Source of the DNA: an uncultured Candidatus Saccharibacteria bacterium
GTDB taxonomy: Bacteria > Patescibacteriota > Saccharimonadia > Saccharimonadales > JAGQNJ01
Assembly: GCA_964426755.1 (NCBI GenBank)
Contig: CAYRRR010000002.1
Span: forward strand, 1,459 to 65,458
DNA: 64,000 nucleotides
Reading direction: 5' to 3'
Shown: one piece after another, positions 31,525 through 48,011 of the stretch
Layout: each line of letters begins with the position of its first letter
Position numbering within the stretch: the first letter of the stretch is position 1
Made by a program: the position numbers and the translations under genes
The notes under the pieces: generated by a model
What the model saw: the letters and a program-made list of their open reading frames with translations, nothing else
Databases searched by the model: none
What the model was told of the DNA's origin: nothing

Positions 31525-32307
31525 GTGATGAGTAGAGGTAAATGGATAGCTACACCAGAAGTCTATGACGCAACTGGGGCAGAAATAACTATTGGCGACA
31601 TTGGTTTGCCGCATGGCCTGGACTCAGAACGGATTCAGTTTAATGTAGATGCGCTCCGACGCGGCGTAATAAGCTGGGGTGGGTATGCCGCCTTGGTTTT
31701 GGGGTCGCGAGCCGGGGAGCGAGACAAGATTGCGCCGCACGTATCAGGTGTGAATGAGGATGGCTCAATAACCGGCGTTTCGTCTCGAACAGAACGAGCC
31801 GAACTGGCGACGAGTTCATCAGATCAGAACACATTATTAGAGAGATTGAATGTTCGCAACGGCACACTTTATGTAAAGCTAAACTCTACTGTCTTAAATG
31901 ATAGAGCAACGTTAGAGGAGCAATTTGACCCTGCTTTTAAAGCTAGGCAGCTTAATCGCGCATTGAAGAAACCAATAATACATGCAGTGACGAAGCATAG
32001 CACCAGTGGTAGACTTAGGGTGTCTAATCCATTTGGTGTGGCCCTTGACGGGATGCTTCTCAGTTCATCTGTAATGAGTTATGTAGAGCGTGATCCAAGC
32101 CTTTTTATAAGTCTACTTTTATTGAATATGACAGGGCAAAAGGGTGTTATACCACTCATGAACAAAAACAGCTATGGTGTTCCTTATGGTGACACCGTGA
32201 CAGATCCAGTGTTTGTTTCAATGAGGCCAACGCGAGCAATCATGGCTGCTGGCACGCTAGCATCACAGCGACTTGTGCGGGCTACGCCTCTTAAGTCTGA
32301 ATCATAA
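31525..32307 (+). CDS. Hypothetical protein occupying the usual pyrH slot
   Basis: 260-aa ORF between tsf and frr. It lacks the UMP-kinase/amino-acid-kinase glycine-rich motifs and no family is recognised. Confidence 0.45.
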   Translation: MMSRGKWIATPEVYDATGAEITIGDIGLPHGLDSERIQFNVDALRRGVISWGGYAALVLGSRAGERDKIAPHVSGVNEDGSITGVSSRTERAELATSSSDQNTLLERLNVRNGTLYVKLNSTVLNDRATLEEQFDPAFKARQLNRALKKPIIHAVTKHSTSGRLRVSNPFGVALDGMLLSSSVMSYVERDPSLFISLLLLNMTGQKGVIPLMNKNSYGVPYGDTVTDPVFVSMRPTRAIMAAGTLASQRLVRATPLKSES

Positions 32308-32342
32308 AATATGATAAAATAAACCTACAGAAAGGGAGTTTT

Positions 32343-32906
32343 ATGGATATTAATCAAGTGGTTGAAACTACTAAAGAAAAGCTTGAAGCTACAGTTAAAC
32401 GCTTTGAGGAAGAGCTAAAAAAACTCCGAACAGGTCGTGCAAGTGCAGCTATGCTTGACGGTGTTATGGTTGAAGCGTATGGCTCTCAAATGCCACTCAA
32501 TCAGGTGGCAAACGTGACTGCTCCCGAGGCGCAATTACTTCAGATTACACCATTCGACCCCAATAATTTAGCGGCAATTAGTGCAGCGATTCGCGACAAT
32601 CAATCGCTTGGACTGAACCCGGCTGATGATGGCCGCGTTGTGCGAGTGCCAATTCCGCCGCTCACAGAAGAACGACGACGTGAAATCACGAAACAAGTTG
32701 GTGTCAAATTAGAAGAAACTATGATCGTCATGCGCGGTATCAGACATGAAGCGCTCGATGTAATTGATGATGCGAAAAAAAATAAATCTCTTGGTGAAGA
32801 TGAAGCCAAGCGCTTGTCGCAGCAAGTTGAAGATACAATGAATAAAACTAAAGTAGCAGCTGAGGCTGTTGCCAAAAATAAAGAACAAGAAATTATGACT
32901 GTCTAG
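32343..32906 (+). CDS. frr: Ribosome recycling factor
   Basis: RRF pattern (LKKLRTGRASAAMLDGV...; R-E-I-T-K). Confidence 0.92.
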   Translation: MDINQVVETTKEKLEATVKRFEEELKKLRTGRASAAMLDGVMVEAYGSQMPLNQVANVTAPEAQLLQITPFDPNNLAAISAAIRDNQSLGLNPADDGRVVRVPIPPLTEERRREITKQVGVKLEETMIVMRGIRHEALDVIDDAKKNKSLGEDEAKRLSQQVEDTMNKTKVAAEAVAKNKEQEIMTV

Positions 32907-32940
32907 TCTCTGTAGAGGCTGATAGAGTTGTACAATAAAT

Positions 32941-33636
32941 ATGATGAAAGTACAGAACATCCCAGATCATGTAGGTATAATCCTGGACGGAAACCGACGT
33001 TGGGCAAAAGCGCGAGGTTTGACTACGCTTGAAGGGCATCGCAAGGGCGCAGAAGTTTTTCGGGAGGTTGCCTTGGCTGCATTTGATCGCGGCGTTTCGT
33101 ATCTTAGCGCTTATATTTTTTCCACAGATAACTGGAATCGCTCAAATGAAGAGGTTTCGTATCTGATGAAGTTAGTTATTAAAGCAGTCGAACGTTATCT
33201 TGATGAATTCCATAAACGAGGCATTAAGATACTTATTATTGGTAGGCGCGACCAAGTGAGCAAAGAAGTAATAAATGCAGTTGAGAAAACAGAATTAAAG
33301 ACTAAAGATAATAAAAACGGCTGCCTGGTGCTCTGTTTTAACTATGGCGGTCATGAAGAGATTGCCGATGCGGTTAATAAAATATTGGCTGAAAATAAGC
33401 ACATAACCAGAATAGAGCCCGCCTTAATTGAACAAAACTTGTATGCACCTGAAGTGCCGTCTATTGATCTGCTGATAAGGACTTCAGGCGAACAAAGAAC
33501 CAGCGGCTTTATGTTGTGGCGATCTGATTATGCCGAACTGATCTTTAGTGATTTGCTGTGGCCTGATTATAGCGTAAGCGCACTTGATGAGGCGTTAACA
33601 GAGTATAATAAAAGACAAAGAAGGTTTGGAGGTTAA
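32941..33636 (+). CDS. uppS: Undecaprenyl diphosphate synthase
   Basis: HVGIILDGNRRWA and GRRDQ motifs. Confidence 0.9.
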   Translation: MMKVQNIPDHVGIILDGNRRWAKARGLTTLEGHRKGAEVFREVALAAFDRGVSYLSAYIFSTDNWNRSNEEVSYLMKLVIKAVERYLDEFHKRGIKILIIGRRDQVSKEVINAVEKTELKTKDNKNGCLVLCFNYGGHEEIADAVNKILAENKHITRIEPALIEQNLYAPEVPSIDLLIRTSGEQRTSGFMLWRSDYAELIFSDLLWPDYSVSALDEALTEYNKRQRRFGG

Positions 33637-34764
33637 GTGTCTGTTATTTTGATCATTATAGGTATTTTATTATTTATAACGCTTGTTGTTTTGCATGAGT
33701 TTGGTCATTTTGTGCTTGCTCGCCGTAATGGGGTTGAGGTTGAAGAGTTTGGCATAGGCTTTCCGCCGAGAGCATGGGGTAAAAAATTAAAAAGCGGTTT
33801 ACTTTTCACAATAAACTGGCTGCCGCTCGGAGGCTTTGTGCGCTTAAAAGGAGAGCATGACGCCAACAAAGAGAAGGGCAGTTATGGTGCTGCTAGCCTG
33901 TGGGCAAAGACAAAAATAATTATTGCCGGCGTGGTAGTAAATGCATTGCTAGCTGTTTTTATATTTAGCGTGCTGGCATTAGTGGGAATACCAAAGATTC
34001 TGGACAATCAGTTTACGGTTGCGAGCGATACAAAAATAATTAGCCAAAAAGTACTGGTGGGCTTAGTTGATGATGATTCGCCGGCGGCTCAAGCCGGTCT
34101 GCAGCCTCGTGATGAACTACAGTCTATTGGAAACAGTCCGGATGATTCTATGCAAGTCGCTAGTGCCGACAGTTTGCCAGAGATTACAAAGCAGTTTGCT
34201 GGCCAAACTGTATCTATAGTGTACAAGCGTGACGGTGAGCCACACACGACCAAAGCTACTCTTCGCGATAAACAAGAAGTCGAAGCTAGCAAACAAAGCA
34301 ATGAGCCGCTCGGCTATCTTGGAGTGGTGCCGACTGAATTAACTCTGCAGAGGTCTACATGGTCTGCCCCAATTGTTGGCGTTGGCTTAACAAAACAGGT
34401 GGCTACTTTAACCTATAAAGGTCTTGGTAATATTGTCACGAGTTTAGTGAGGGGTGATGCAAAACAGGCCTCTAGCCAAGTGTCAGGGCCAGTGGGTGTT
34501 TTTGTGCTACTACGAGACGTTAGTGAACTGGGCTTTCAATTTATTTTAATGATTATTGCCATCATTTCGTTGACACTAGCCATCATGAACTCGTTGCCGA
34601 TCCCGGCACTTGATGGAGGACGCTTATTCGTAACCTATGTATACCGACTTTTGAATAAGCCACTCACCGAGAAGGCAGAAGATATGATTCACGGCATAGG
34701 TTTTATGGTGCTCATCAGCCTCTTTTTGCTTATTACTATTGTTGACGTTGGCAGGTTCTTCTAG
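33637..34764 (+). CDS. rseP: Site-2 protease RseP-like (M50) with PDZ
   Basis: HEFGHF zinc motif, internal PDZ and LDGG. GTG start overlapping the uppS stop. Confidence 0.85.
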   Translation: MSVILIIIGILLFITLVVLHEFGHFVLARRNGVEVEEFGIGFPPRAWGKKLKSGLLFTINWLPLGGFVRLKGEHDANKEKGSYGAASLWAKTKIIIAGVVVNALLAVFIFSVLALVGIPKILDNQFTVASDTKIISQKVLVGLVDDDSPAAQAGLQPRDELQSIGNSPDDSMQVASADSLPEITKQFAGQTVSIVYKRDGEPHTTKATLRDKQEVEASKQSNEPLGYLGVVPTELTLQRSTWSAPIVGVGLTKQVATLTYKGLGNIVTSLVRGDAKQASSQVSGPVGVFVLLRDVSELGFQFILMIIAIISLTLAIMNSLPIPALDGGRLFVTYVYRLLNKPLTEKAEDMIHGIGFMVLISLFLLITIVDVGRFF

Positions 34765-35531
34765 TGCAGTCCGGGGTAAGGCAAGAAAATACCCTCAAAC
34801 AACCTTTTTACGGACCAGTTGCGTCGTTGTTGTTAACGGTTGTCATATTTTTTGGTGCCCAAATTGTAGCTAGTTTAGTGCTTTTTGCAATTGCACAATT
34901 ATTCGGCATAAAAGAACATGAGATAGAAACTTTCTTTTCGCGATCGGTGGGGCAGTTTGTTTTTGTTTGTATCGCAAATGCTTTAATTTTAGGGTCTTTA
35001 CACTGGTTAATTAAGCGAAAGAATGGCTCGTGGAAAGATTTAGGCCTAGCTTGGCCGAAACTTAATGACGCTGGACGGGCACTACTTGCATATGGCATAT
35101 ATATATTATTGCTTATTGTGATAACGGCTGTTGCAAAGGCAGTTTATCCAGCACTTGATATAGAACAAGAACAACAAATTGGCTTTGAGGCTAATCAGGG
35201 GATTTTGAATTTGTTGATGGCTGGTGTTAGTTTGGTTATTCTGCCGCCAATTATTGAAGAATTATTGTGTCGAGGTTTTCTGTATACCGGTCTCCGGACA
35301 AAGTTATCGGTGATTCCTTCCGCAATTATTACTAGTGTCGTTTTTGCGGTAGCACACTTACAGTTTGGCAGCGGTGCGCCGCTGCTATGGGTAGCTGCGA
35401 TTGACACGTTCGTCTTATCACTGGTACTTGTATATTTACGTGAGAGTACCGGTAAACTGGCCGCGCCGATGTTGCTTCACGGTATAAAAAATGCAATCGC
35501 CTTTAGCTTGCTCTTTATTTTCGTGCAATAA
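34764..35531 (+). CDS. CPBP (CAAX protease/Abi) family intramembrane metalloprotease
   Basis: EELLCRGF, FAVAHL and HGIKN motifs in a polytopic membrane protein. Confidence 0.78.
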   Translation: MQSGVRQENTLKQPFYGPVASLLLTVVIFFGAQIVASLVLFAIAQLFGIKEHEIETFFSRSVGQFVFVCIANALILGSLHWLIKRKNGSWKDLGLAWPKLNDAGRALLAYGIYILLLIVITAVAKAVYPALDIEQEQQIGFEANQGILNLLMAGVSLVILPPIIEELLCRGFLYTGLRTKLSVIPSAIITSVVFAVAHLQFGSGAPLLWVAAIDTFVLSLVLVYLRESTGKLAAPMLLHGIKNAIAFSLLFIFVQ

Positions 35532-35589
35532 GTGGTATAATACAAGACTATGAATTGCAAAACTGTCTTCGAACTTGACGTTCCGATGC

Positions 35590-35614
35590 CACCCGCTTAG
35601 GGTGTTATTTTTGT
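35590..35614 (+). terminator. Rho-independent terminator after the uppS-rseP-CPBP operon
   Basis: CACCC-GCUUA-GGGUG hairpin followed by UUAUUUUUGU. Confidence 0.6.
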
Positions 35615-35640
35615 AATTAATTAAAATGAATGCATATAAC

Positions 35641-35664
35641 GCCCTTCAGTAACGAAGGGCTTTT
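35641..35664 (+). terminator. Second hairpin plus U-tract 13 nt upstream of the next start codon (terminator or attenuator-like)
   Basis: GCCCUUC-AGUAAC-GAAGGGC (7 bp) followed by UUUU, then AAAUUGGAGAAA-ATG. Confidence 0.4.
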
Positions 35665-35676
35665 AAATTGGAGAAA

Positions 35677-36039
35677 ATGATGAGTCAAAATAACAAGATT
35701 GAAGAGTGGGGCGTGGGTGAGTATGCTTGGGCAGAATCTGTCGACGGGATTACGGTGGATGGTTGGCAACTCGAGACAGAAGTTGAGCTTCATGCTCATC
35801 GCTTGGCACGAAGCGTTTGTAGTGAGCAAATAAGCGTGAAAGATTTATGGAGAGGTGTTAGATTTGCAAATGCTCTTGATAGAGAAGCGGTTGAAGTATA
35901 CGGCGCAGATTTATCAGATGGCGAGCAGCAAAAAGAGCGCATTGCGCGTCGGCTCATGCATCATGCCGGCCGGCAGGCATTGTTACTAATCAAAGACGAG
36001 ACTAGGCGCGTTATTTACCGAATTAGCCATAAAATTTAG
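35677..36039 (+). CDS. Hypothetical protein
   Basis: 120-aa ORF with a GGAG RBS. No motif recognised. Confidence 0.4.
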   Translation: MMSQNNKIEEWGVGEYAWAESVDGITVDGWQLETEVELHAHRLARSVCSEQISVKDLWRGVRFANALDREAVEVYGADLSDGEQQKERIARRLMHHAGRQALLLIKDETRRVIYRISHKI

Positions 36040-36067
36040 TACAATAAATGAAAAGAGAGGAAGAATA

Positions 36068-37327
36068 ATGAGAACATCCCAATTATTTACGAAAACTCGT
36101 AAGGAGGCACCTGCCGACGAGACAGCCAAGAACGCTCAGCTTTTGATTCGTGCAGGCTATGTGCATAAAGAAATGGCTGGTGTATACGTTTTTATGCCGC
36201 TTGGTTTACGGGTACTGGAAAACATTAAACAAATTGTCAGAGAAGAGATGGATAATGTGGGTGGTCAAGAAGTGCAAATGACTGTTTTGCAGCCTAAAGA
36301 ACTGTTTGAGAAAACCGATAGATGGGATGATAAAAAAGTAGACAACTGGTTTAAAACAAAGCTAGTCAATGGCACGGAGTTAGGTATGGGCTTAACGCAC
36401 GAAGAGCCAATAGTTGATATGTTGTCAGATTACATCAGTTCTTATAAAGACCTCCCTGTGCTGGCTTATCAGATCCAGACTAAGTTTAGAAACGAACTGA
36501 GAGCTCAAGCGGGGCTATTGCGAGGGCGTGAGTTTGTTATGAAAGATATGTATAGCTTTGCGCGTACCCAAGAAGAGCATGAACAAATTTATGAGAAAGT
36601 CGCGGAAGCATACCACAAGGTTTATGAACGCCTAGGAATTGGTGATATTACCTATAGAACTTACGCTGATGGCGGTATTTTTACGCAACGGTTTAGTGAT
36701 GAATTCCAGATGCTTAGTGAAATTGGAGAAGACACTATTTATATTGATACATCACGCAAGATTGCCGTCAATAAAGAGGTTATAGATGATGAACGGTTGA
36801 AAAATATCGATGTCAATAAAGCCGATCTTAAGGAACATAAGGCTATAGAAGTCGGTAATATTTTTCCCTTAGAAAGTAAATATACAGATGCACTGAATGT
36901 TTTCTATACAGATGCAGATGGCAGTCAACAAAAAATTATTGCCGGCTGTTACGGAATCGGTGTAAGTCGTTTGGTTGGGGCGCTAGCCGAGCATTTTGCA
37001 GACGATAAAGGTTTAGTATGGCCTGAGAATATTGCACCATTTAAAGCGGTACTTTGTACACTTAACCCTGACGAGGCGGTAGTAGGTGCGGCGGATGCTT
37101 TGTATGCCGCTCTTGAAGAGCAAGGAGTATCAATTATGTATGATGATCGTGACGTACGTGCCGGTGAAAAACTTGCTGATGCTGATCTCTTGGGCATTCC
37201 ACACCGCATCGTTATCAGTCCCAAAACGCTTGAGCGCAATCAGTACGAATATAAACATCGCACTTCATCAGTGACCAAAATGTTAAGTCGTGAAGAGCTC
37301 TATAAATTATTGGCACAAACAAACTAA
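36068..37327 (+). CDS. proS: Prolyl-tRNA synthetase (short form without INS editing domain)
   Basis: MRTSQLF...LLIRAGY N-terminus and class II motifs. 419 aa, so the INS editing domain appears absent. Confidence 0.82.
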   Translation: MRTSQLFTKTRKEAPADETAKNAQLLIRAGYVHKEMAGVYVFMPLGLRVLENIKQIVREEMDNVGGQEVQMTVLQPKELFEKTDRWDDKKVDNWFKTKLVNGTELGMGLTHEEPIVDMLSDYISSYKDLPVLAYQIQTKFRNELRAQAGLLRGREFVMKDMYSFARTQEEHEQIYEKVAEAYHKVYERLGIGDITYRTYADGGIFTQRFSDEFQMLSEIGEDTIYIDTSRKIAVNKEVIDDERLKNIDVNKADLKEHKAIEVGNIFPLESKYTDALNVFYTDADGSQQKIIAGCYGIGVSRLVGALAEHFADDKGLVWPENIAPFKAVLCTLNPDEAVVGAADALYAALEEQGVSIMYDDRDVRAGEKLADADLLGIPHRIVISPKTLERNQYEYKHRTSSVTKMLSREELYKLLAQTN

Positions 37328-37412
37328 GGTTGCTATAATACAGGCAAATCACTGATAACATCAAAGACCTATCAGATTGAATTGTTCAGAAAGACAGTGA
37401 GGTAATTAGAGT

Positions 37413-37874
37413 ATGAAAAAACAATTTCATTTAACTAAAGAAGGTATTGCAGAACTAAAGGCAGAACTAAAGGCATTGCAAGCCGAGCGTGTTCCGATTG
37501 CTGAACGCATTAAGACAGCCCGTGAGTTTGGTGACTTAGCTGAAAATGCGGAATACACCGCTGCAAGGGCTGAGCAGGAGCAAACCGAAGGTCGCATAGC
37601 GGAAATCGAGCATATTTTACAAAACGTTAAAGTCATACACAAACCGACAGGTGATAGTAAGGTTCAGTTGGGCTCAAATGTGAAGCTTAAAAGTGCTGAC
37701 GGTAAAACAAAAGAGTTTCAAGTGGTTGGTACGGTTGAAGCTGATCCGATGAATGGCAAGATCTCTGATGAGTCTCCTATTGGTAAGGCGTTATTGGGCA
37801 AAAAAGAGGGCGATGAAGTAGAGATTAAAACACCAGCTGAAACCTCTGCATACGTGATTATTGAAATAGGTTAG
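37413..37874 (+). CDS. greA: Transcription elongation factor GreA
   Basis: N-terminal coiled-coil (LTKEGIAELKAEL...) and an FKBP-like C-terminal domain. Confidence 0.9.
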   Translation: MKKQFHLTKEGIAELKAELKALQAERVPIAERIKTAREFGDLAENAEYTAARAEQEQTEGRIAEIEHILQNVKVIHKPTGDSKVQLGSNVKLKSADGKTKEFQVVGTVEADPMNGKISDESPIGKALLGKKEGDEVEIKTPAETSAYVIIEIG

Positions 37875-37878
37875 ATTT

Positions 37879-39441
37879 ATGTCTGACAATTCAAATAAAA
37901 GATATTGGCTGACAACCGTTGTCGAGCAAATAGCCAAAGAATACCCAAATGGTACGCTTGTCGTGGCAAGTGGTATTTCTCCGTCTGCTAGTTATCATAT
38001 CGGCCATTTTCGAGAAGTATTGACTGCTGATGGTCTAGCATGGGGACTGCGAAGGCTTGGGCGAGAAGTTCGCCACATCCACTTTGTTGATAATTTTGAT
38101 CCATTACGAAAGCGCTATCATTTTTTGCCCAAATCGTACGACCAGTATGTCGGCTGGCCTATTTGTCTTGTTCCAGCTCCAGATGGTAGTGAGAAGAGCT
38201 ATGCTACGTACTTTAGTGAAGAGTTTCAGAAGCGTGCTTCTGAGATGGGTATTGATATGGAAGTTGTTTACAGCTACGAAGACCAATACAAAAGTGGCAA
38301 AATGGTGCCGTATATTGAAGCAGCCTTGGCGCACGGTCCAGAAATTCGAGATATTTTTAAACGAGTAGCTAATAGAGATTTGTCAGATGATTGGATGCCG
38401 ATCCAAATACTATCAGACAATAAAAGCTTTAACGAATGGCGCTATAAGGCCATTGATACAAGTAAAAAGACTATCGCTTACATTGACAAAAACGGTCAAG
38501 AAGGAGAGGTTAGCTATCAAGACGGTCGGGTAAAACTTAACTGGCGGCTTGATTGGCCGGCGCGCTGGGCATTATGGAATGTAGATGTTGAACCATATGG
38601 CAAAGAGCATGCGACAAAGGGTGGAAGTTACGATACGGGCGCTGAATTTGTAAAAACAGTTTTTAAGGCAAAAGCGCCGTTTCCGTTGCCTTACGACACG
38701 ATTAATATGGCGGGTGACAATAAAAAAATGAGCAGCTCGCTAGGGAACGTAGTAACGCCGGCTGAAGCTCTTGAAATTATGCCGCCAGAAGTTTTACGTT
38801 ATTTCGTATATCGCAATTTACCAAGGCGAGTGCTTTATTTTGATAGTGGCCTCGGTCTATACAACCTGATTGATGAATTCAGCAAAGTTGAAGAAGCTGT
38901 AGAGTCGGGCAATACGCATGAGTTTGCGGAAGCGTACAATGTATCAACTGCTATTTCATCACAGCGAACGATAACAAGCATACCATTTAACCATTTGGTA
39001 AGCGTATTCCAGGCAGCTCAAGGTAATGAAGAGGAAATAGTAGCTATTTTGAAGCGAACCGGGTACGGTGACGTTGTCTCGACTCACGCAGAGGTGCTCA
39101 AGCGTGAAATCCCCTATGTTGCCAACTGGCTAGAGAAGTACGCGCCTGATAGCGTAAAATTTGTTGTTCAAGATGCGCTGCCAAAGGTTGAACTGAGCGA
39201 AGCGCAGAAACAATTTGCGCAAATACTTGCTGACAAGCTCGTTGCTATGCAAGATATCGACGGTCAAACAATGCATGAGACAATATACGCAGCCAAAGAA
39301 GAGGCTGACCTGCAGCCGGGTGAGGCATTTAAGGCGCTGTATCGTTTAATTCTAGACAAAGATTCTGGCCCAAAGGCCGGTTGGTTTTTGGCCTCGCTTG
39401 ATAAAGGATGGCTGATTAAACGTCTTAAGCAAGAGGTATAA
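37879..39441 (+). CDS. lysK: Class I lysyl-tRNA synthetase
   Basis: HIGH as SASYHIGHFRE and KMSKS as KMSSSLGN. The overall class I LysRS architecture is distinct from class II LysS. Confidence 0.82.
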   Translation: MSDNSNKRYWLTTVVEQIAKEYPNGTLVVASGISPSASYHIGHFREVLTADGLAWGLRRLGREVRHIHFVDNFDPLRKRYHFLPKSYDQYVGWPICLVPAPDGSEKSYATYFSEEFQKRASEMGIDMEVVYSYEDQYKSGKMVPYIEAALAHGPEIRDIFKRVANRDLSDDWMPIQILSDNKSFNEWRYKAIDTSKKTIAYIDKNGQEGEVSYQDGRVKLNWRLDWPARWALWNVDVEPYGKEHATKGGSYDTGAEFVKTVFKAKAPFPLPYDTINMAGDNKKMSSSLGNVVTPAEALEIMPPEVLRYFVYRNLPRRVLYFDSGLGLYNLIDEFSKVEEAVESGNTHEFAEAYNVSTAISSQRTITSIPFNHLVSVFQAAQGNEEEIVAILKRTGYGDVVSTHAEVLKREIPYVANWLEKYAPDSVKFVVQDALPKVELSEAQKQFAQILADKLVAMQDIDGQTMHETIYAAKEEADLQPGEAFKALYRLILDKDSGPKAGWFLASLDKGWLIKRLKQEV

Positions 39442-39481
39442 GCATATAGCAAATATATCGCTTGTGACATAAGGAGGACCT

Positions 39482-40000
39482 ATGAAGGCAACACTAGCAG
39501 GAGGGTGCTTTTGGTGTTTGGAGGCAGCATATCAATTAATTGAGGGTGTAAAAAAAGTTGTACCTGGGTATGCTGGTGGAGCGTTTGAAAATCCATCATA
39601 TCAGCAAGTATGTACGGGTGAGACAGGTCATGCAGAGGCGGTGCAAATTACCTATGACGAGCAAGTCCTAAGCTATCAAGATATACTGGATATTTTTTGG
39701 ACTATTCATGATCCAACAACCTTAAACAGACAGGGTAATGACATAGGATCACAATATCGGTCTATTATTTTGTACGCAAATAATGAGCAAAAGCGGCAAG
39801 CCGAGCGGTCACGCAAACAAGTACAAAAAATTTGGGAAGATCCGGTGGTTACAGAAATTAAACCACTTGAAAAGTTTTATGAAGCAGAGCCGGAACACCA
39901 CGATTACTTTAAAAAACACCCTAATCAGACGTACTGTCAGGTGGTAATAAATCCAAAACTAGAAAAGCTGCGCCAAAAGTTTATAGCTAAACTCAAATAA
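39482..40000 (+). CDS. msrA: Peptide methionine sulfoxide reductase MsrA
   Basis: Active-site GCFWC at the N-terminus. Confidence 0.92.
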   Translation: MKATLAGGCFWCLEAAYQLIEGVKKVVPGYAGGAFENPSYQQVCTGETGHAEAVQITYDEQVLSYQDILDIFWTIHDPTTLNRQGNDIGSQYRSIILYANNEQKRQAERSRKQVQKIWEDPVVTEIKPLEKFYEAEPEHHDYFKKHPNQTYCQVVINPKLEKLRQKFIAKLK

Positions 40001-40052
40001 TTTTTACTTTATAACGGCTGGCAAAGTGCAGAGATAATGATACAGTTAAGAT

Positions 40053-40862
40053 ATGAAAAAGTTTACGAGCCTTCTTAGGACAAAACAAAAAGTCAATTTT
40101 GAAAGATTAAATAAATGGAATATTGGCCTGGCAATACTCCACGCCGTGCAAGGTATTTTGATTCTAGTGTTAAGCCGGGGTGCAAACACAGCGGTAAGCA
40201 CCAGCTATTTAAGTATAGATCCGCTGCTGAGTCGTGATGGCCAGCCGGTTCTGGTGCCAGCCTCATCCAATTTGTTTGATTTAAATCTCGGTTACTTGGT
40301 GGCGGCGTTTTTCTTTATGTCGACAATTGCCCACACCGTTATTGCAACCATATATAGAAAGCGGTATGAAGATGGGTTGAAGAAGGGTATAAATCGGGTG
40401 CGGTGGATAGAGTATGCCTTTAGTGCCAGCACCATGATGGTGGCAATTGCAGTTTTGAGTGGCGTATACGATCTTTCAAGTTTACTAATGATATTTAGCC
40501 TGGTGGCAGTTATGAATCTGATGGGACTTGTCATGGAGCTTTGGAATCAAACTACAAAACAAACTAACTGGTTGAGTTTTGTGATAGGCTGTTTTGCTGG
40601 CATAGTACCGTGGATTGTGTTTGCGGTTTACGTATGGGGTGCCAATGTGTATGGGGCGGGCCAGATTCCAGCCTTTGTGTACTGGATTTACCTTAGCATT
40701 TTCATATTCTTTAATATTTTTGCAATTAATATGTATCTTCAATACAAGAAAAAGGGCAAATGGGCAGATTATCTGTACGGCGAAAAAATTTATATGATAT
40801 TAAGCCTTGTCGCGAAGTCTGCACTGGCCTGGCAGGTGTTTGCCGGAACCTTGAGGCCATAA
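40053..40862 (+). CDS. Heliorhodopsin (retinal-binding 7-TM photoreceptor)
   Basis: Strong pattern match to the heliorhodopsin family across the protein: RWIEYAFSAS (counterion E), IGCFAGIVPWI, YLQYKKKGKW and SLVAKSALAWQVFAGTL (Schiff-base K). Conserved His in TM1/TM2. Confidence 0.85.
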   Translation: MKKFTSLLRTKQKVNFERLNKWNIGLAILHAVQGILILVLSRGANTAVSTSYLSIDPLLSRDGQPVLVPASSNLFDLNLGYLVAAFFFMSTIAHTVIATIYRKRYEDGLKKGINRVRWIEYAFSASTMMVAIAVLSGVYDLSSLLMIFSLVAVMNLMGLVMELWNQTTKQTNWLSFVIGCFAGIVPWIVFAVYVWGANVYGAGQIPAFVYWIYLSIFIFFNIFAINMYLQYKKKGKWADYLYGEKIYMILSLVAKSALAWQVFAGTLRP

Positions 40863-40924
40863 CGAGGGATTAATCTTTTAAGAGGCTTTGGAATACCGCT
40901 CTGCCTTTGTACAATAAAAGGTAA

Positions 40925-41539
40925 ATGAGGTATTTAATTTTTGACTTTGACGGTACTCTTGCCGACAGTTTGCCGGTTATTATTGAAATTGCCGAAGATA
41001 TGCTCGGTATAGAGATCACGCAGAATGATATTGATCGATACAGAAACATGACGGCTAAACAAATCTTAAAAGAGGCGCGCATTCCTTTATATCGAGTACC
41101 GAGACTGCTTGTTAGAGGGAAAGCCCTTATGTCATCGCGCGTTAACGAGGTTGTGATGTTTAAAGGCCTTGAGCCAGTAATTAAGCAGCTAGCCGAAGAT
41201 CATGTGCTGTATGTAGTGAGTTCTAATGGTATTGGTATTATCTCTTCGTTTTTGGAGCGTAATAAAATTGATCAGTATTTTTCAAATATATATGGTAATG
41301 TCGGTTTGTTCAGTAAGGCTCAAGCCATTAAGCGGGTAATGAAACGCGAACAATTTGAGGCCTCAAAATCTATATATATAGGTGATGAAGTACGAGATAT
41401 TGAAGCTGCCAAAAAAATTGGTATGCCTATTATTTCAGTGACCTGGGGTTATAACGGTAAAGAAATATTACGCAAATACCAACCCGATTATTTAGTAGAT
41501 TCACCACGAGCACTACAAAAAACAATAAAAGCTCTATAG
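40925..41539 (+). CDS. HAD-superfamily hydrolase (phosphatase-like)
   Basis: Motif I FDFDGTLADS and the later HAD motifs (VVSSN, GDEVRD). Confidence 0.75.
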   Translation: MRYLIFDFDGTLADSLPVIIEIAEDMLGIEITQNDIDRYRNMTAKQILKEARIPLYRVPRLLVRGKALMSSRVNEVVMFKGLEPVIKQLAEDHVLYVVSSNGIGIISSFLERNKIDQYFSNIYGNVGLFSKAQAIKRVMKREQFEASKSIYIGDEVRDIEAAKKIGMPIISVTWGYNGKEILRKYQPDYLVDSPRALQKTIKAL

Positions 41540-41580
41540 TCAGGTTCGGCTCCTATAACATGCTGCTATACTAAAGTGAC

Positions 41581-42360
41581 ATGAGTTATTTTAGGGAACG
41601 CAGTCAACCGTATAAACCAGGACAAAAAACTCCATTCAAGGTGAGTCGCAGTAAAATTGAGCTGTTTATGCAGTGTCCACGTTGTTTTTGGCTTGACGTG
41701 CGTTTGAAAATTACGCGGCCAAGTGGCCCCCCGTTTAATATTAATAAAGCAATTGATGAACTCTTAAAAAAAGAATTTGATAGTTTTCGGCTTAAAAAAG
41801 AGCCTCACCCCTGGATGATAGAAAACCAAATTAAAGCAATTCCTATGCAGCATGCCGAGCTTGAAGCGTGGCGTCACAATTTTACAGGGGTATTTACACT
41901 CCATAAACCTACCAATTTACATGTATTTGGTGCGCTTGATGACATTTGGGTGGGTGGCGATGGCGAACTTATTGTGGTAGATTACAAGGCAACTTCAAAA
42001 GATAGAGAAGTTACAATAGATTCTGATTGGCAAATTAGCTATAAGCGTCAGCTTGAAGTGTATCAATGGTTGCTAAGACAGAACGGCTTCACGGTAAGCG
42101 ATACAGGATATTTTGTTTACACCAATGCCCGGATTGATGCAGAGGGTTTTTTTAACAGAGTCGAGTTTAAAACAAAAATAATTCCATACCAAGGTAACGA
42201 TGCATGGATTGAGCCAACCCTGCAAAAGATGAAAGATTGTATGGAAGGCGACATGCCAAAAGTGGGCATGGCGGCCATGGGCGGTCCATGCGATTTCTGT
42301 GTGTATGTCAGAAAACGCACTGAATTAACCTTAAAGCACCTGCAAAATAAGAAGAAATAG
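41581..42360 (+). CDS. Cas4-like PD-(D/E)XK nuclease with Fe-S cysteine quartet
   Basis: N-terminal CPRC(FWL), motif II D (GALDDIW), motif III IVVDYK and QxxxY (QLEVYQ). C-terminal CDFC. Four Cys in all. Confidence 0.55.
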   Translation: MSYFRERSQPYKPGQKTPFKVSRSKIELFMQCPRCFWLDVRLKITRPSGPPFNINKAIDELLKKEFDSFRLKKEPHPWMIENQIKAIPMQHAELEAWRHNFTGVFTLHKPTNLHVFGALDDIWVGGDGELIVVDYKATSKDREVTIDSDWQISYKRQLEVYQWLLRQNGFTVSDTGYFVYTNARIDAEGFFNRVEFKTKIIPYQGNDAWIEPTLQKMKDCMEGDMPKVGMAAMGGPCDFCVYVRKRTELTLKHLQNKKK

Positions 42361-42375
42361 CGTTATAATAACACC

Positions 42376-43671
42376 ATGCTAGATATACAGTTTATACGGG
42401 AAAATCCGGAATTAGTTGCAGAAAAATCAAAACAAAAAGGCTACGAAGTGGATATTCAGCAACTGTTGGGTTTTGACTCAAAGCGCCGCGAATTATTGGT
42501 TGCGATTGAAGCACATCGCCGAAAACGGAATGAAATCGCTGAAAGCATAAAAGGCGGCAAGCCGTCAGAAGATCAAATTACTGAAGGCCGTGAAGTTAAA
42601 GATATCTTGGCAGACCTGGAGCATCGTTTTGCCGCTATCGATAAAGAATTTATAGAGCTCCTTAAAGCGGTGCCAAATATGCCGCTCAATACCGTTCCCG
42701 TAGGTAGTTCAGAGGCCGACAATGTCGTTATTAAAGCCGTAGGCGAACGGCCGGAGTTTAACTTTAAGCCCAAAAACCATGCTGAAATTGCCGAGACAAA
42801 AGGATGGCTAGATCGAGAGCGGGCGGTTAAGATTGCCGGAGCGCGCTTTATATACTCTAAAGGTGATTTAGTTTTGTTGGAATGGGCACTTATGCGGTAT
42901 GGCATGGACGTATTAAGCGATGAAGCGACGTTAAATGAAATTGTTAATAATAGTAACCTTCGTGTTAGTGCTAAGCCGTTTATGCCCGTGCTACCGCCGT
43001 CTGTCGCTAAAAAAGAAGTCTTTGAAGCTACCGGCCGGCTTAATCGCGAAGAGCAGACGTATAAAATCGAAGACGAAGATTTATGGCTGAACGCCAGCGC
43101 CGAACACACACTTGCGCCGATGTATTTAGATGAGATATTGCCTGAAGGCGACCTCCCGCTACGATACGTCGGTTATACGACAGCTTTCAGAAAAGAGGCT
43201 GGCACCTACGGGAAAGATACCGAAGGATTATTTCGTCTACATCAGTTTAACAAACTAGAAATGGAGAGTTTCACGACGCCTGAAAACTCTCTGCAAGAAC
43301 ATCTTTTCATGGTTGCGATTCAAGAATACTTAATGCAGCAACTTGGATTGCCGTATCAGGTGTTAGAAAAGTGCACTGCAGATATCGGGAAACCAAATGC
43401 TAAAGGTGTTGACATTGAAGTGTGGTTGCCGAGCCAAAATACTTATCGAGAAACCCACACGGCAGACTATATGACCGACTATCAAGCGCGAGCAATGAAA
43501 ACTCGCATACGTCGAAGTAGTGGTGATATAGAGTTTGTGCACACAAATGATGCAACTGTGTTTGCCCAACGGCCTCTTATTGGAATCATCGAAAATTATC
43601 AAACACGCGAAGGAGACGTGATTGTTCCAGAGGTGCTCAGGAAATATATGAGAGGGAGAGTAAAAATCTAA
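42376..43671 (+). CDS. serS: Seryl-tRNA synthetase
   Basis: N-terminal coiled-coil arm (MLDIQFIRENPE...) and class II motifs. Confidence 0.92.
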   Translation: MLDIQFIRENPELVAEKSKQKGYEVDIQQLLGFDSKRRELLVAIEAHRRKRNEIAESIKGGKPSEDQITEGREVKDILADLEHRFAAIDKEFIELLKAVPNMPLNTVPVGSSEADNVVIKAVGERPEFNFKPKNHAEIAETKGWLDRERAVKIAGARFIYSKGDLVLLEWALMRYGMDVLSDEATLNEIVNNSNLRVSAKPFMPVLPPSVAKKEVFEATGRLNREEQTYKIEDEDLWLNASAEHTLAPMYLDEILPEGDLPLRYVGYTTAFRKEAGTYGKDTEGLFRLHQFNKLEMESFTTPENSLQEHLFMVAIQEYLMQQLGLPYQVLEKCTADIGKPNAKGVDIEVWLPSQNTYRETHTADYMTDYQARAMKTRIRRSSGDIEFVHTNDATVFAQRPLIGIIENYQTREGDVIVPEVLRKYMRGRVKI

Positions 43672-44030
43672 TGTCATTAAAGCTAGAAATAAACGCAATA
43701 CATACCGATGTTAGCGATGATCTTAAAAAGTATATTACAAAGAAAATCGGTCGATTGGATCGATTTTTATCACGGCGTGCGCGCGAATCATCGCGTGGCG
43801 AAGTAAAGTTAAAACAGTCAAAGAATAAAGGCAAAAAACAACACACCTGTGAAGTCGTGCTTCACTTGCCTCACGAAACCATTACGGTTAGCGAGACAAC
43901 CATAAACATGTTCGCAGCTGTAGACATTGTAGAGACTAAACTCAAAAATCAGCTTAAAAAATACAAAGAAACACATTCAGTCTTACGGGGTCGTACGCGA
44001 CAGTTGCTTAGCAAAATACGTTCGCGTTAA
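43671..44030 (+). CDS. hpf: Ribosome hibernation promoting factor / RaiA family
   Basis: MSLKLEINAIHTDVSDDLKKYITKKIGRLDRF is the YfiA/HPF N-terminal fold pattern. The usual hpf-secA adjacency is present. Confidence 0.8.
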   Translation: MSLKLEINAIHTDVSDDLKKYITKKIGRLDRFLSRRARESSRGEVKLKQSKNKGKKQHTCEVVLHLPHETITVSETTINMFAAVDIVETKLKNQLKKYKETHSVLRGRTRQLLSKIRSR

Positions 44031-44100
44031 GCCTGTGAAGTAGGGTACAATATACCTCCAGAGTGGGAAGATCTTATAAGTTAGGGAAGAATTGAGGATA

Positions 44101-46716
44101 ATGAAAAGAATTTTAAAGAAAGTTTTAGGTGACCCGCAAGCCCAAACTATTAAACGGCTACGCAAACGCGTAAAAGAGATAAATGATCTGGCTGATAAGT
44201 ACAAAAAACTTTCGGACGAGAAGTTAAAATCACAAACGGACGTTTTGAAGAAGCGGCTCGAGAAAGAGTCGCTGGATAAAATATTGCCTGACGCTTTTGC
44301 GGTGGTACGCGAAGCTGCAACCCGAACGCTTAAGCAGCGCCATTTTGATGTACAGCTTATTGGCGGCATGGTTCTTCATGAAGGCAAGGTTGCCGAGATG
44401 AAGACCGGTGAAGGGAAAACATTGGTTGCGACCCTACCGGTATATCTCAATGCCTTAACAAGTAAAGGGGTACACGTTGTAACGGTAAACGACTATCTAG
44501 CGCAACGTGATGCCGGTTGGATGGGGCAAATCTATGATTTTATGGGGTTGAGCATTGGTGTTATCATTCCTGACGGTTCATTTATTTATGATGCAGCCTA
44601 TAAAAATGAGAATCATGACGATCCGCGCTTGCGACACCTTAAACCCTGTACACGGCAAGAAGCCTATGCGGCTGATATAACCTATGGTACAAATAATGAG
44701 TTCGGCTTTGATTATTTACGAGACAACATGGTGCGCGAAGAAGCGCAGTTGCGCCAGCGAGACTTGCATTATGCAATTGTTGACGAGGTTGACTCAATTT
44801 TAATTGACGAGGCGAGAACACCGTTGATAATTTCGGCTGCGGCAGCCGCAAGCGCCACAGCTTACGAGCAATTTGCCAAAGTGGTGCGAACACTGGTAAA
44901 AGATAAGCACTATACGGTCGATGAAAAGCACCGTTCAGTTGTACTGACTGATGAGGGTGTAGAAGCAGTTGAAAAGAAGCTTGGCATCGATAATTTATAC
45001 GCAACAGAAAATATACGCAACATCTATCATCTTGAGCAGGCGTTAAAGGCTGAAGCTGTATTTAAGCGTGACAAAGATTACGTCATAACAAAAGATGGCG
45101 AGATTGTTATTGTTGACGAATTTACTGGTCGTTTATTGAAAGGTCGCCGTTATAACGAGGGTCTTCACCAGGCAATCGAGGCCAAAGAAGGAGTAGAAGT
45201 CAAAGAAGAATCAATGACTTTAGCTACCATTTCATTCCAGAACTACTTTCGGCTATACGAAAAGCTGTCGGGTATGACCGGTACTGCAGAAACTGAAAGT
45301 GAAGAGTTTCACCAGATCTATAAGCTCGACGTCGTGCAGGTCCCTTCTAATAAGCCGCTAATTAGAGATGATCGACCTGATCGAATCTATAAAACCGAGA
45401 CGGCTAAATTCCGGGCAATTATTAAAGAAGTTCAGGTGCTTCATACCAAGGGGCAGCCAGTTCTGATTGGTACAGTGTCAATTGAGCGTAATGAACTACT
45501 CAGTAGCATGCTTAAGCGGGCCGGTATTCCTCACCAAGTTTTGAATGCAAAAAATAATGAAAAAGAGGCGGCCATTGTTGCCGGCGCTGGTCAGAAAGGT
45601 GCAGTTACGCTGGCGACTAACATTGCCGGGCGAGGAACCGATATTGTTTTGAGCGATGAGGTAAAGAAGCTTGGTGGCCTGTTTGTACTTGGTTCTGAAC
45701 GGCATGAATCGAGACGTATTGATAATCAGCTGCGAGGACGCTCTGGTCGTCAAGGCGACCCTGGTGTAACACAATTCTTCGTTTCGTGTGAAGATGACCT
45801 TATGCGTATCTTTGGTGGTGAACGAATATTAGCTATCATGGAGCGACTTAACGTTGATGACGATACACCGATTGAAAACAGGGTAATATCGCGAAGTTTA
45901 GAGGCGGCACAAAAGAAGGTTGAAGGCTTTAACTTTGACCAGCGGAAAAATGTTGTTCAGTATGACGACGTCATGAACCGCCATCGCAAAGCCACCTATA
46001 CAATTCGACGCGAAATATTAAAAGATACTGATATTAGTAAACGAATTAGAGCTTTTATTGCGGATGAGGCCAAGGCGATAGCTCAATCACCGCTAGCTCA
46101 TACCGAGGAATATGAAGAAATGCTTAAACAGGTATTTCCTCTGGATGATGCGGCCTTAGATGTGGTGTTTGATGCCGAGTATGATCAGTTTGCAAAAGTT
46201 TTAACCCAAAAGGCTTTAGAATTGTACGAAAGTCGCGAGGCGGCTTTTGGTTCAGATACCATGCGGGCGGTTGAGCGTGAAATTTATTTGCAAGTACTCG
46301 ATAACTTATGGATGGAGCACCTTGAAAGCATGAATCATTTGCGTGAAGGCATTGGCTGGATGGGGGTTGGTCAAAAAGATCCCTTGGTTGAATATCGACG
46401 TCGCTCGCAAGTACTGTTTGAAGATATGCAGCTCAGGTTGCGCCAAGAAATTGTGAAGACTATATTCACCGCCGCACCAGTAAATGAAAACCAGCCTGTT
46501 GAGACTGAACTAACTCGAGCAGCTCGCCGTTCAGTTGATAATGCTGATAAAATTATTGAAGCAGAAGGGCTGCATGATGAGGATTTCCTTTCAGTTTCAG
46601 ACAATACCGCCCAGCTTACTGAAGTTAAGGCCACAAAAAAACAAACTTCGACTAAAAACCGAAAAAAAGCCCGTAAAGCAGAGCGCAAGCGGCGGGCAAA
46701 AGGGCGCAAACATTAA
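44101..46716 (+). CDS. secA: Preprotein translocase ATPase SecA
   Basis: DEAD-motor motifs (MKTGEGKTLVATLP, DEVDSILIDEA). The basic C-terminal tail replaces the Zn-finger. ATG 44101 with a GAGGA RBS. Confidence 0.93.
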   Translation: MKRILKKVLGDPQAQTIKRLRKRVKEINDLADKYKKLSDEKLKSQTDVLKKRLEKESLDKILPDAFAVVREAATRTLKQRHFDVQLIGGMVLHEGKVAEMKTGEGKTLVATLPVYLNALTSKGVHVVTVNDYLAQRDAGWMGQIYDFMGLSIGVIIPDGSFIYDAAYKNENHDDPRLRHLKPCTRQEAYAADITYGTNNEFGFDYLRDNMVREEAQLRQRDLHYAIVDEVDSILIDEARTPLIISAAAAASATAYEQFAKVVRTLVKDKHYTVDEKHRSVVLTDEGVEAVEKKLGIDNLYATENIRNIYHLEQALKAEAVFKRDKDYVITKDGEIVIVDEFTGRLLKGRRYNEGLHQAIEAKEGVEVKEESMTLATISFQNYFRLYEKLSGMTGTAETESEEFHQIYKLDVVQVPSNKPLIRDDRPDRIYKTETAKFRAIIKEVQVLHTKGQPVLIGTVSIERNELLSSMLKRAGIPHQVLNAKNNEKEAAIVAGAGQKGAVTLATNIAGRGTDIVLSDEVKKLGGLFVLGSERHESRRIDNQLRGRSGRQGDPGVTQFFVSCEDDLMRIFGGERILAIMERLNVDDDTPIENRVISRSLEAAQKKVEGFNFDQRKNVVQYDDVMNRHRKATYTIRREILKDTDISKRIRAFIADEAKAIAQSPLAHTEEYEEMLKQVFPLDDAALDVVFDAEYDQFAKVLTQKALELYESREAAFGSDTMRAVEREIYLQVLDNLWMEHLESMNHLREGIGWMGVGQKDPLVEYRRRSQVLFEDMQLRLRQEIVKTIFTAAPVNENQPVETELTRAARRSVDNADKIIEAEGLHDEDFLSVSDNTAQLTEVKATKKQTSTKNRKKARKAERKRRAKGRKH

Positions 46717-48011
46717 TGAAACATACAGTTCATGAGCTTACCTTAAAAAATGGTGCAAAAGGCTTACTGGTGCACATTCCTGATGCTACCGTCATAACAT
46801 ATGACATTAATTTTCGGGCTGGTGAATATTTGGTAGAGCGTAATAAATGGGAAACGCCACATTTAATGGAGCACGTTCTGCTCGGTGCTAATGAATTATT
46901 CCCACGATCACGTGATTTCCAGGCGGAGTTAGAAAAAAACGGAGCATATGCAAATGCCAGCACCGGTAGTTACGATATTACATATGAAGCTGAGTGCGCA
47001 GATTTTGAGTGGGATCGCGTTTTAGGTTTACTTCTTACTGCCATTTCTAAGCCACTATTTTTACAAGATGAATTTGAAGCAGAATTGGGTAATGTTCGAG
47101 AAGAGTTATTTTCGCGCTCAAATAATCATTTTCGATACTTGAATTTAGCACTGCGTGAGAAGTACGGTTTTTGCGTCATGACCGATCAAGAGCGACTCAA
47201 GCTAATGGATAATGTGACTCTTGGTGATGTTCAGGCGCACTATAAAAAAACGCATCGCGCTCCCAATATGCGTTTTGTTATCGCAGGAAACCTGACAAAA
47301 CCGAGACAGGAGGTCATACGTAAATTATTAACTACTATCGAATTAGAGGGTGATGGTTATCGGACCCCGCTGCCAGATGAAACGCCCAAATCTTTGTCAG
47401 AGCCATTATATTTACATAACCCAACTATTGAAAATCTGTATTTTTATATCGACACCTTTACTCGCCGACGAGTAACAGAGACGGAGAGTTACGGTCTGAT
47501 GTTGTCTAATATACTTCTAACAGAAACACTTCATTCACGTATTTTTGGCCAAGCGCGCGAGAAAGGTTTAGTTTACGGAGTCAGCTCAAATTATTCACGT
47601 TTGCTTGGTTCGACTAATATGTGGCTGGGCGCGCAGGTTATGCCGCAAAACATGCAGGCACTTTCATCGATTATTCGACACGAAATTAACGACATGAAAC
47701 AGGGGGGCATTAGTGAAGAGGAACTAAGGGCGGCTAAGCTTTTTGCTTTAGGGCGCTATCAGCGAAGTGCGCAAACAGTGGCCAGTACGGCAAATCTTTA
47801 TAGTAGCCGCTACTTCTATGAGGAGGAAACTGAAGATTACTATGCAATTCCGGATAAAATACAGGCAGTGACCAAAGATCAGATGGTGGCAGCAATCAAT
47901 GCTGTATTTGCAGAAAAGGTGCGTGGTTTCGGCGTGCTGGGTAGCTGTGGCGAGGAATTTGTACATAAAGCATATACTGCTCTCGAAAGCTTATGGGCAG
48001 AGGTTGCATAA
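46716..48011 (+). CDS. M16-family (insulinase-like) zinc peptidase
   Basis: Inverted zinc motif HLMEH (HxxEH) near the N-terminus. Single M16 domain. Confidence 0.72.
   Translation: MKHTVHELTLKNGAKGLLVHIPDATVITYDINFRAGEYLVERNKWETPHLMEHVLLGANELFPRSRDFQAELEKNGAYANASTGSYDITYEAECADFEWDRVLGLLLTAISKPLFLQDEFEAELGNVREELFSRSNNHFRYLNLALREKYGFCVMTDQERLKLMDNVTLGDVQAHYKKTHRAPNMRFVIAGNLTKPRQEVIRKLLTTIELEGDGYRTPLPDETPKSLSEPLYLHNPTIENLYFYIDTFTRRRVTETESYGLMLSNILLTETLHSRIFGQAREKGLVYGVSSNYSRLLGSTNMWLGAQVMPQNMQALSSIIRHEINDMKQGGISEEELRAAKLFALGRYQRSAQTVASTANLYSSRYFYEEETEDYYAIPDKIQAVTKDQMVAAINAVFAEKVRGFGVLGSCGEEFVHKAYTALESLWAEVA

Follow-up and report, generated by a model that had tools for sequence, protein, structure and literature searches.

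A canonical heliorhodopsin in a variable slot of a Saccharimonadales housekeeping gene array, and the meaning of its msrA neighbour

Does a heliorhodopsin gene that lies directly behind a methionine-sulfoxide repair gene belong to a photo-oxidative stress module, or does it owe its neighbours to the way in which the chromosome is arranged? This question is raised by a 64,000-nucleotide stretch of contig CAYRRR010000002.1 (assembly GCA_964426755.1) from an uncultured Candidatus Saccharibacteria bacterium, referred to in the following as the window. Region 39482-42360 of the window contains four open reading frames (ORFs), all on the plus strand and separated by gaps of 52, 62 and 41 bp:

39482..40000, plus strand: MsrA, a peptide-methionine (S)-S-oxide reductase of 172 amino acids (aa), identified by PF01625, TIGR00401 and its GCFWC motif
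40053..40862, plus strand: heliorhodopsin (HeR), 269 aa, identified by PF18761, NF038020, PDB match, AlphaFold2 (AF2) model, Foldseek and invariant residues
40925..41539, plus strand: HAD-IA family hydrolase, 204 aa, with a DFDGT motif (HAD_2, E 1.8e-29)
41581..42360, plus strand: PD-(D/E)XK protein, downstream anchor of the slot described below (PDDEXK_1, PF12705, E 8.5e-12)

The initial annotation had placed msrA 52 bp upstream of HeR on the same strand, with the HAD gene and then the PD-(D/E)XK nuclease gene 3′ of HeR; the gap, the coordinates and both downstream assignments proved accurate. It had also taken the adjacency to msrA as suggestive of a photo-oxidative stress module, and this reading is not supported. 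The explanation favoured here, with a probability of about 0.8, is that the ORF encodes a canonical Saccharimonadales HeR that would use scavenged retinal and act as a light-dependent regulator, and that the msrA, HAD and PD-(D/E)XK neighbours are explained by position and not by function.

The identity of ORF 40053-40862 as a canonical heliorhodopsin with intact chromophore-site residues is secure. The family profile PF18761 matched with an E value of 8.8e-94 (313.8 bits, cut-off 26.7) over profile positions 1-242 of 242, and the NCBIfam equivalog NF038020 ('HeR') scored 316.8 bits against a cut-off of 100. The protein therefore falls in the HeR family, as had been proposed, and not in another family with seven transmembrane (TM) helices. 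The top PDB sequence match was TaHeR (6is6, E 1.3e-75). The AF2 model showed seven TM helices (pLDDT 83.5, pTM 0.80), and when it was used in Foldseek, heliorhodopsins alone were returned at E < 1e-13, with 6is6 matching at TM-scores of 0.85/0.91 and a root-mean-square deviation of 2.0 Å. Type-1 rhodopsins gave weak matches (E > 1e-3, 10-16% identity), and assignment of the ORF to that family was rejected on this difference in E values. The helices and loops of the model, including extracellular (ECL) and intracellular (ICL) loops, were as follows:

Residues 16-40: TM1
Residues 79-100: TM2
Residues 115-135: TM3
Residues 141-164: TM4
Residues 174-200: TM5
Residues 207-232: TM6
Residues 240-267: TM7
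Residues 45-78: ECL1, beta-hairpin
Residues 101-114: ICL1, basic
Residues 233-239: ICL3, basic (KKKGKW)

The hallmark lysine, glutamate and two histidines named in the initial annotation could all be located. K255, in SLVAKSALAW (S251-L-V-A-K255, an SxxxK motif), aligned with the retinal Schiff-base lysine of TaHeR. E120, in RWIEY, shared the alignment column that separates 6is6 from the E108D mutant 7clj, indicating that it occupies the counterion position. H30 and H94 aligned with two conserved HeR histidine positions. All four residues were invariant in an alignment with 32 relatives of 62-86% identity, and in the AF2 model H30 lies on TM1, H94 on TM2, E120 on TM3 and K255 on TM7, so that structure prediction also put the lysine and the glutamate on the helices where a heliorhodopsin should have them. 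The long loop between TM1 and TM2 formed the HeR-typical beta-hairpin, with strands at 45-55 and 67-78. Lysine and arginine were concentrated in residues 1-15, in ICL1 (R102, K103, R104, K110, K111) and in ICL3 (K232-K236), with few in the predicted outer loops; by the positive-inside rule, taken by itself, this distribution would fit the inverted, N-in topology of the family.

Searches with the HeR protein yielded 6137 matches at E <= 1e-20, the nearest with up to 86% identity. The nearest relatives and the fetched genome loci came overwhelmingly from metagenome-assembled genomes (MAGs) of Candidatus Saccharibacteria or Saccharimonadales, and more distant relatives from Dojkabacteria, WWE3 and Thermoplasmata. 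The named closest relatives of HeR and of the PD-(D/E)XK protein were nearly all from Candidatus Saccharibacteria or Saccharimonadales MAGs, and the HeR locus was also present in the Logan assembly of SRR7082982. Judged by these relatives, the host is a Saccharimonadales bacterium (Saccharibacteria/TM7, Patescibacteria) of the Candidate Phyla Radiation (CPR).

How such a host could supply the chromophore was considered from the gene content of the window, which comprised 68 ORFs of 60 aa or more without overlaps. Of these, 65 were scanned against Pfam, and the remaining three (GreA, SerRS and SecA) were identified from the Pfam tables of a locus that is identical or homologous. By Pfam, none of the 68 ORFs was a BCD/Blh dioxygenase, a phytoene synthase (SQS_PSY) or desaturase, an Amino_oxidase/CrtI protein, a lycopene cyclase, an RPE65 protein or a type-1 rhodopsin, which bears out the earlier remark that the window holds no retinal-synthesis genes. 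The ORFs encode instead translation factors, tRNA synthetases, ribosomal proteins, PriA, FtsA/FtsZ, NrdR, ribonucleotide reductase and ParAB, as well as signal peptidase, HtrA, UppS, RseP, SecA, FtsEX, peptidoglycan hydrolases, CTP synthase and XseAB. Ten ORFs matched no family, and ORF 25632-26381 was the sole polytopic one among them (249 aa, about eight predicted TM segments, overlapping the preceding LytR_cpsA_psr gene by 20 bp). A cryptic Blh-type dioxygenase was considered for this ORF and rejected; because it had no Pfam or NCBIfam match and follows LytR_cpsA_psr, it was treated as an envelope protein and not as evidence for retinal synthesis. Rfam and tRNA scans of the window gave no matches.

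The suggestion that retinal is acquired externally is plausible and matches the view already published for Saccharibacteria with rhodopsins, these bacteria lacking blh; TaHeR-type HeRs take up retinal from outside within seconds through a protein opening, and in the same lakes retinal is produced by Actinobacteria, which are the likely hosts (PMC9296517). On the strength of this published work, the bacterium would be unable to make retinal, and the apoprotein would be loaded with all-trans-retinal scavenged from the surroundings or from an actinobacterial host. By analogy with TaHeR, the closest solved relative, entry would be expected to take the form of fast external uptake via the protein opening. 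Missing retinal genes, both in the window and in the rhodopsin-bearing Saccharibacteria genomes of PMC9296517, could also be taken to mean that the gene is a relic, its apoprotein being non-functional without a retinal source or serving a light-independent membrane role. This is scarcely credible: the ORF is intact, the hallmark residues of the chromophore pocket are the invariant ones described above, HeR relatives number in the thousands, the gene is kept in streamlined genomes of about 1 Mb, and experiments have established that TaHeR and the SacR rhodopsins can be loaded with retinal from outside (PMC9296517).

Under illumination the loaded protein would, as published work on other HeRs suggests, pump no ions but pass through a slow photocycle and serve as a light-dependent regulator. 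Its basic cytoplasmic loops would serve to bind at least one partner protein and to modulate it, by analogy with HeRs that bind and light-modulate glutamine synthetase (GS), photolyase and the ABC transporter OmrDE via basic ICL1/ICL3 residues (PMC11109279). A role as an energy or ion photoprotein, whether as a proton transporter gated or driven by light, as in some giant-virus HeRs, or as a light harvester with an exogenous carotenoid antenna, is very improbable. It could draw on proton transport reported for the viral V2HeR3, as cited in PMC11109279 and PMC12873467, on a 2025 preprint that proposes both a conserved carotenoid site and recruitment of exogenous xanthophylls by HeRs (10.1101/2025.11.27.691015), and on the few other energy routes of CPR cells, some Saccharibacteria using type-1 pumps (PMC9296517). 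However, in both sequence and fold the protein is nearest to two prokaryotic HeRs, TaHeR and 48C12, which makes both proton transport and a carotenoid antenna less likely. Neither of these two proteins is known to transport ions, and this counts against an energy or ion role. Furthermore, proton-pumping Saccharibacteria use separate type-1 SacR rhodopsins (PMC9296517), and the scans of the window ORFs linked neither a type-1 rhodopsin nor an ATP synthase to the HeR locus. An orphan response regulator (56681-57079) and an FHA-PP2C protein (57242-58666) are encoded about 16 kb from HeR; nothing ties either to HeR.

The neighbours of HeR are best understood from the array in which they lie. A co-directional and strongly conserved housekeeping order of prolyl-tRNA synthetase (ProRS), GreA, lysyl-tRNA synthetase (LysRS), a variable slot, the PD-(D/E)XK protein, seryl-tRNA synthetase (SerRS), ribosome hibernation factor (HPF), SecA, M16, RF2 and FtsEX was recognised. 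Its backbone in the window, established from Pfam, the locus table and the order in relatives, was:

36068-37327, plus strand: ProRS, upstream of the slot
37413-37874, plus strand: GreA, upstream of the slot
37879-39441, plus strand: class-I LysRS, upstream of the slot
42376-43671, plus strand: SerRS, downstream of the slot
43671-44030, plus strand: HPF, downstream of the slot
44092-46716, plus strand: SecA, downstream of the slot

From 30190 to 48011, 19 genes of the window are co-directional with short gaps, so that closeness on the same strand is the rule here and carries little information. Clustering and Pfam gave the order of the slot as an ABC/FtsX pair, DUF427, MsrA, a sortase on the opposite strand, HeR, a TRAM/U5 RNA methyltransferase, RsmE and HAD. 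This gene order is fixed, while the individual genes come and go independently. In the window the intervening slot genes are absent, and msrA and HeR are for this reason 52 bp apart. A promoter and terminator scan of 37300-44200 found 17 promoter-like sites compared with 16.0 +/- 3.9 in shuffles and established nothing firm on operon structure; it detected no promoter-like site in the msrA-HeR gap, where there was likewise no terminator-like site on the plus strand, and a weak 9/12 match alone precedes HAD. The two genes would probably be read through together within a long transcript.

Co-occurrence of msrA and HeR was analysed in three sets of loci. For the first set, 80 HeR-encoding genome loci were fetched and the window proteins were mapped onto each. 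The array backbone was common to 22 of the 80. Among these 22, msrA was found in 11, in two of which (L018 and L032) it was directly adjacent to HeR on the same strand; a minus-strand sortase separated the two genes in seven of the 11, and msrA was divergent in L036. Outside the slot, at other positions, in other CPR classes and in archaea, msrA lay within 8 kb of HeR in only one of 58 loci. The second set was anchored on the PD-(D/E)XK gene, so that slots were sampled regardless of HeR, and comprised 11 genomes with assignments confirmed by tblastn:

Slot with msrA and HeR, 6 genomes: L162/163, a 371-kb contig from the JGI (partly L167), L168, L171, L172, L173
Slot with HeR and no msrA, 2 genomes: L164, L170
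Slot with msrA and no HeR, 2 genomes: L169 (MsrA-HAD-PDDEXK, with a 16-bp MsrA-HAD gap), L174 (MsrA adjoining HAD)
Slot with neither msrA nor HeR, 1 genome: L165/166

Fisher's exact test on these counts (6/2/2/1) gave p = 1.0. When the slots were pooled, msrA was present in 17/30 with HeR and in 2/3 without HeR (Fisher p = 1), the latter figure resting on n=3. The third set, a scan of metagenome contigs anchored on msrA (80 loci, 53-62% identity), gave no locus with the other array genes of the window (0/80) and one (L144) in which a HeR lay at a distance of 4.4 kb; because MsrA is so strongly conserved between phyla, such a scan is unsuited to sampling Saccharibacterial loci without HeR. Within the slot two types of MsrA were distinguished, one of about 173-178 aa that was 56-66% identical to the MsrA of the window and one of 159-160 aa that was 40-46% identical. 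Together with HeR identities of 37-71%, the two types suggest either long residence of the genes in the slot or repeated replacement.

No neighbour co-occurred with HeR beyond what shared synteny provides, as an operon partner of HeR would: msrA is independent, and HAD and the PD-(D/E)XK gene persist without HeR. The adjacency of msrA and HeR is best read as a conserved gene order from which intervening genes have been lost, and not as a co-inherited module. A dedicated stress module of msrA, HeR, HAD and nuclease is left unsupported, since the slot is variable, presence and absence are independent, a sortase on the opposite strand often intervenes, and the combination is nearly confined to the slot.

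Several observations weigh against this explanation by position. The order of msrA followed by HeR is kept in the 17 slots over deep divergence, as judged from the HeR identities, which go down to 37-49%, and the two MsrA types. An independent arrangement of MsrA (plus strand), MsrB/SelR (minus strand) and HeR (plus strand) within 1.8 kb was found in a Thermoplasmatales MAG (L075:768-2531), which is the only non-slot HeR locus with msrA nearby. Genes for TrxB-like (thioredoxin-reductase-like) and VKOR proteins each adjoin HeR in three loci, redox genes are reported to be enriched near HeRs (PMC8612252), and a functional link of HeR to the repair of oxidative damage thus keeps some standing.

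One form that such a link could take is a functional pair, in which HeR would bind MsrA and, when illuminated, stimulate the repair of methionine sulfoxide close to the membrane, the two making up a light-anticipating photo-oxidative repair module. It is nevertheless unlikely. Same-strand orientation, the short gap, the lack of a plus-strand terminator-like site between the genes and direct adjacency in L018, L032, L162/163, L171 and L172 agree with it, as do the archaeal MsrA-MsrB-HeR arrangement, the reported redox neighbours and the partner-binding paradigm with its conserved basic ICLs (PMC11109279). On the other hand, msrA is missing from 13 of the 30 slots with HeR and kept in two of the three without, an opposite-strand gene (usually the sortase) lies between msrA and HeR in at least eight loci, where co-transcription is therefore ruled out, and both the loci outside the slot and the msrA-anchored contigs yielded just a single case each. 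Moreover, the ten operon partners of HeR listed as recurrent in PMC11109279 do not include MsrA, a literature search that combined heliorhodopsin with methionine sulfoxide reductase returned no paper, and the words 'msrA' and 'methionine' are absent from the main text of PMC8612252. The wider proposition is that MsrA (and MsrB in archaea) would be a hitherto uncatalogued class of HeR partner: in some Saccharimonadales and in one or more Thermoplasmatales archaea, HeR would bind the reductase encoded immediately 5′ of it and raise the activity of this enzyme under illumination. This is about equally unlikely. Position within the slot thus remains the preferred explanation for the neighbours of HeR.

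The neighbours themselves were identified with differing precision. The MsrA ORF matched PF01625 with an E value of 1.7e-65 (220 bits) and TIGR00401 with 203.5 bits against a cut-off of 108.1; its catalytic motif GCFWC stands in 'GGCFWCLE' at residues 7-14, and the gene has the ribosome-binding site AAGGAGG. The HAD ORF reached the cut-offs of HAD-IA subfamily models alone (TIGR01549, 26.2 vs 23.3; TIGR01509, 29.4 vs 29.4). An identity as phosphoglycolate phosphatase was rejected, the best NCBIfam equivalog scoring 109.7 bits, below 368. HAD is a frequent but not constant resident of the slot and was present without HeR in L165, L169 and L174.

The downstream anchor had been described as a Cas4-like Fe-S nuclease, and this description could be upheld in part. 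The PD-(D/E)XK profile was clear (PDDEXK_1, 46 bits, cut-off 22), and the protein has the invariant residues D120, D121, D134-Y-K136 and Q157 together with four invariant cysteines (C32, C35, C237 and C240), which are putative ligands of an Fe-S-type cluster with an unusual CxxC...CxxC spacing. Identity as Cas4 was rejected, with both scores below their cut-offs (TIGR00372, 34.2 < 65; PF01930, 16.6 < 22.7 bits), and neither CRISPR repeat arrays in the window nor cas families in any window ORF were found. The JGI nevertheless labels the protein as Cas4, despite such scores and a non-CRISPR context. It was 73-84% identical across the 119 relatives listed, more conserved than the adjacent SerRS, and in most of the related loci its gene lies directly 5′ of that for SerRS. 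This gene belongs to the Saccharimonadales core and goes with SerRS, not with HeR. The NCBI call for this gene, 230 aa, is N-terminally shorter than the 259-aa form favoured by the relatives.

Some further features of the array and the window were observed. The LysRS at 37879-39441 is of class I (archaeal-type; TIGR00467, 416 bits) and directly follows GreA, likewise in several relatives, while at this syntenic position other Saccharimonadales have an enzyme of class-II type, with an OB fold and a tRNA-synt_2 domain. From a comparison of L002:4927-6450, L013, L037, L170:3350-4909, L172:1909-3429 and L174:906-2414, an in-place swap of lysyl-tRNA synthetase classes is possible, the class-II enzyme being a putative LysRS with Asp/Asn specificity as the alternative. 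No UMP kinase was detected in the window. ORF 31525-32307 (260 aa, no family) lies between tsf and frr, the usual place of pyrH; in L162 and L169 an AA_kinase (PyrH-like) gene is located immediately 5′ of ProRS, and the window has at that place ORF 35668-36039, which encodes 123 aa from a TTG start and matches no family. ORF 2983-4377, directly 3′ of IF-2, encodes a highly charged, low-complexity protein of 464 aa with a single C-terminal TM anchor and also matches no family.

Other HeR neighbourhoods differed from that of the window. A soluble, highly conserved protein of 166-168 aa directly adjoins HeR in six CPR loci from Saccharibacteria, Dojkabacteria and WWE3:

L025:3989-4495: 166-168 aa HeR neighbour
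L026:2639-3142, minus strand: 166-168 aa HeR neighbour
L031:4970-5476: 166-168 aa HeR neighbour
L033:8767-9273: 166-168 aa HeR neighbour
L038:7464-7964: 166-168 aa HeR neighbour
L043:946-1452: 166-168 aa HeR neighbour

The protein carries the motifs DPRGWFQWYxRYYMGRRI and QRQAxLHWAYDSR, gave no significant Pfam, NCBIfam or PDB sequence match, and is followed by IscS-IscU in three of the six loci. The window does not encode it; in the CPR lineages that do, the protein is a candidate partner of HeR. Among the non-slot Saccharibacterial HeRs, pairs of a histidine kinase and an OmpR-type response regulator adjoin HeR in 5-6 loci, thioredoxin-reductase-like genes in three and VKOR genes in three:

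Non-slot HeR loci with signalling or redox neighbours: L051, L053, L057, L060, L061, L068; L064, L065, L076; L034, L052, L054

These signalling and redox neighbourhoods agree with the published enrichment (PMC8612252).

That HeRs are widespread in Saccharimonadia, depend on foreign retinal and may have a role in oxidative stress has already been published (PMC9166423, PMC9296517, PMC8612252). The description of the syntenic slot and the weak msrA lead alone are new. What had appeared as an msrA/HeR 'module' dissolves into a variable slot of fixed gene order, which calls for caution with streamlined CPR genomes, where long co-directional housekeeping arrays make tight same-strand adjacency weak functional evidence. 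If HeR did regulate MsrA, the oxidative-stress hypothesis would gain a concrete and easily assayed enzymatic read-out, and HeR would be linked directly at the molecular level to the repair of photo-oxidative damage, a link so far inferred from neighbourhood statistics alone.

Among characterised proteins, the HeR of the window is closest to TaHeR of a Thermoplasmatales archaeon (6is6, 7u55, 7clj), its top match in sequence (about 50% identity) and fold. Both share the positions of the two histidines, the glutamate and the lysine, the SLVAKSALAWQVFAGTLRP C-terminus and the YLQYKK.GKW sequence of ICL3, and the source organism of TaHeR is also without a retinal pathway, TaHeR loading external retinal rapidly (PMC9296517). 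Unlike TaHeR, the protein of the window has a CPR bacterial host; its ECL1 hairpin is longer, and 5 extra residues are inserted into the extracellular loop between TM5 and TM6. Whereas TaHeR has been studied experimentally, the protein of the window is known here from sequence and model. With the HeRs of Saccharimonadia and other CPR bacteria (PMC9166423, PMC8612252) it shares the phylum-level host and the SLVAK motif. Chiriac et al. (2022) reported 80 HeRs in Saccharimonadia, among whose motifs SLVAK was the most frequent, and suggested that HeRs are connected with oxidative stress (PMC9166423). For monoderms, Bulzu et al. (2021) put HeRs forward as sensory switches that counter photo-oxidative stress (PMC8612252); neither paper describes the syntenic slot or msrA. 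The retinal-scavenging idea was established for Saccharibacteria by Jaffe et al. (2022), who do not mention msrA (PMC9296517).

Regulatory HeRs, i.e. those associated with GS and photolyase and the OcHeR-OmrDE system (PMC11109279), resemble the HeR of the window in their basic ICL1 and ICL3 and in their co-directional run with neighbouring genes. Unlike them, the HeR of the window adjoins none of the ten catalogued partner groups, which are GS, NAD+ synthetase, photolyase, MerR, TerC, ABC transporter, SDR (short-chain dehydrogenase/reductase), alpha/beta hydrolase, DUF2177 and DUF2238 (PMC11109279); the ABC/FtsX pair is found in the slot of some relatives (L164, L173) and is absent from that of the window. 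The SacR type-1 rhodopsins (PMC9296517), finally, have the same host phylum and the same need for external retinal, but they belong to a different rhodopsin family, have the opposite membrane topology and pump protons.

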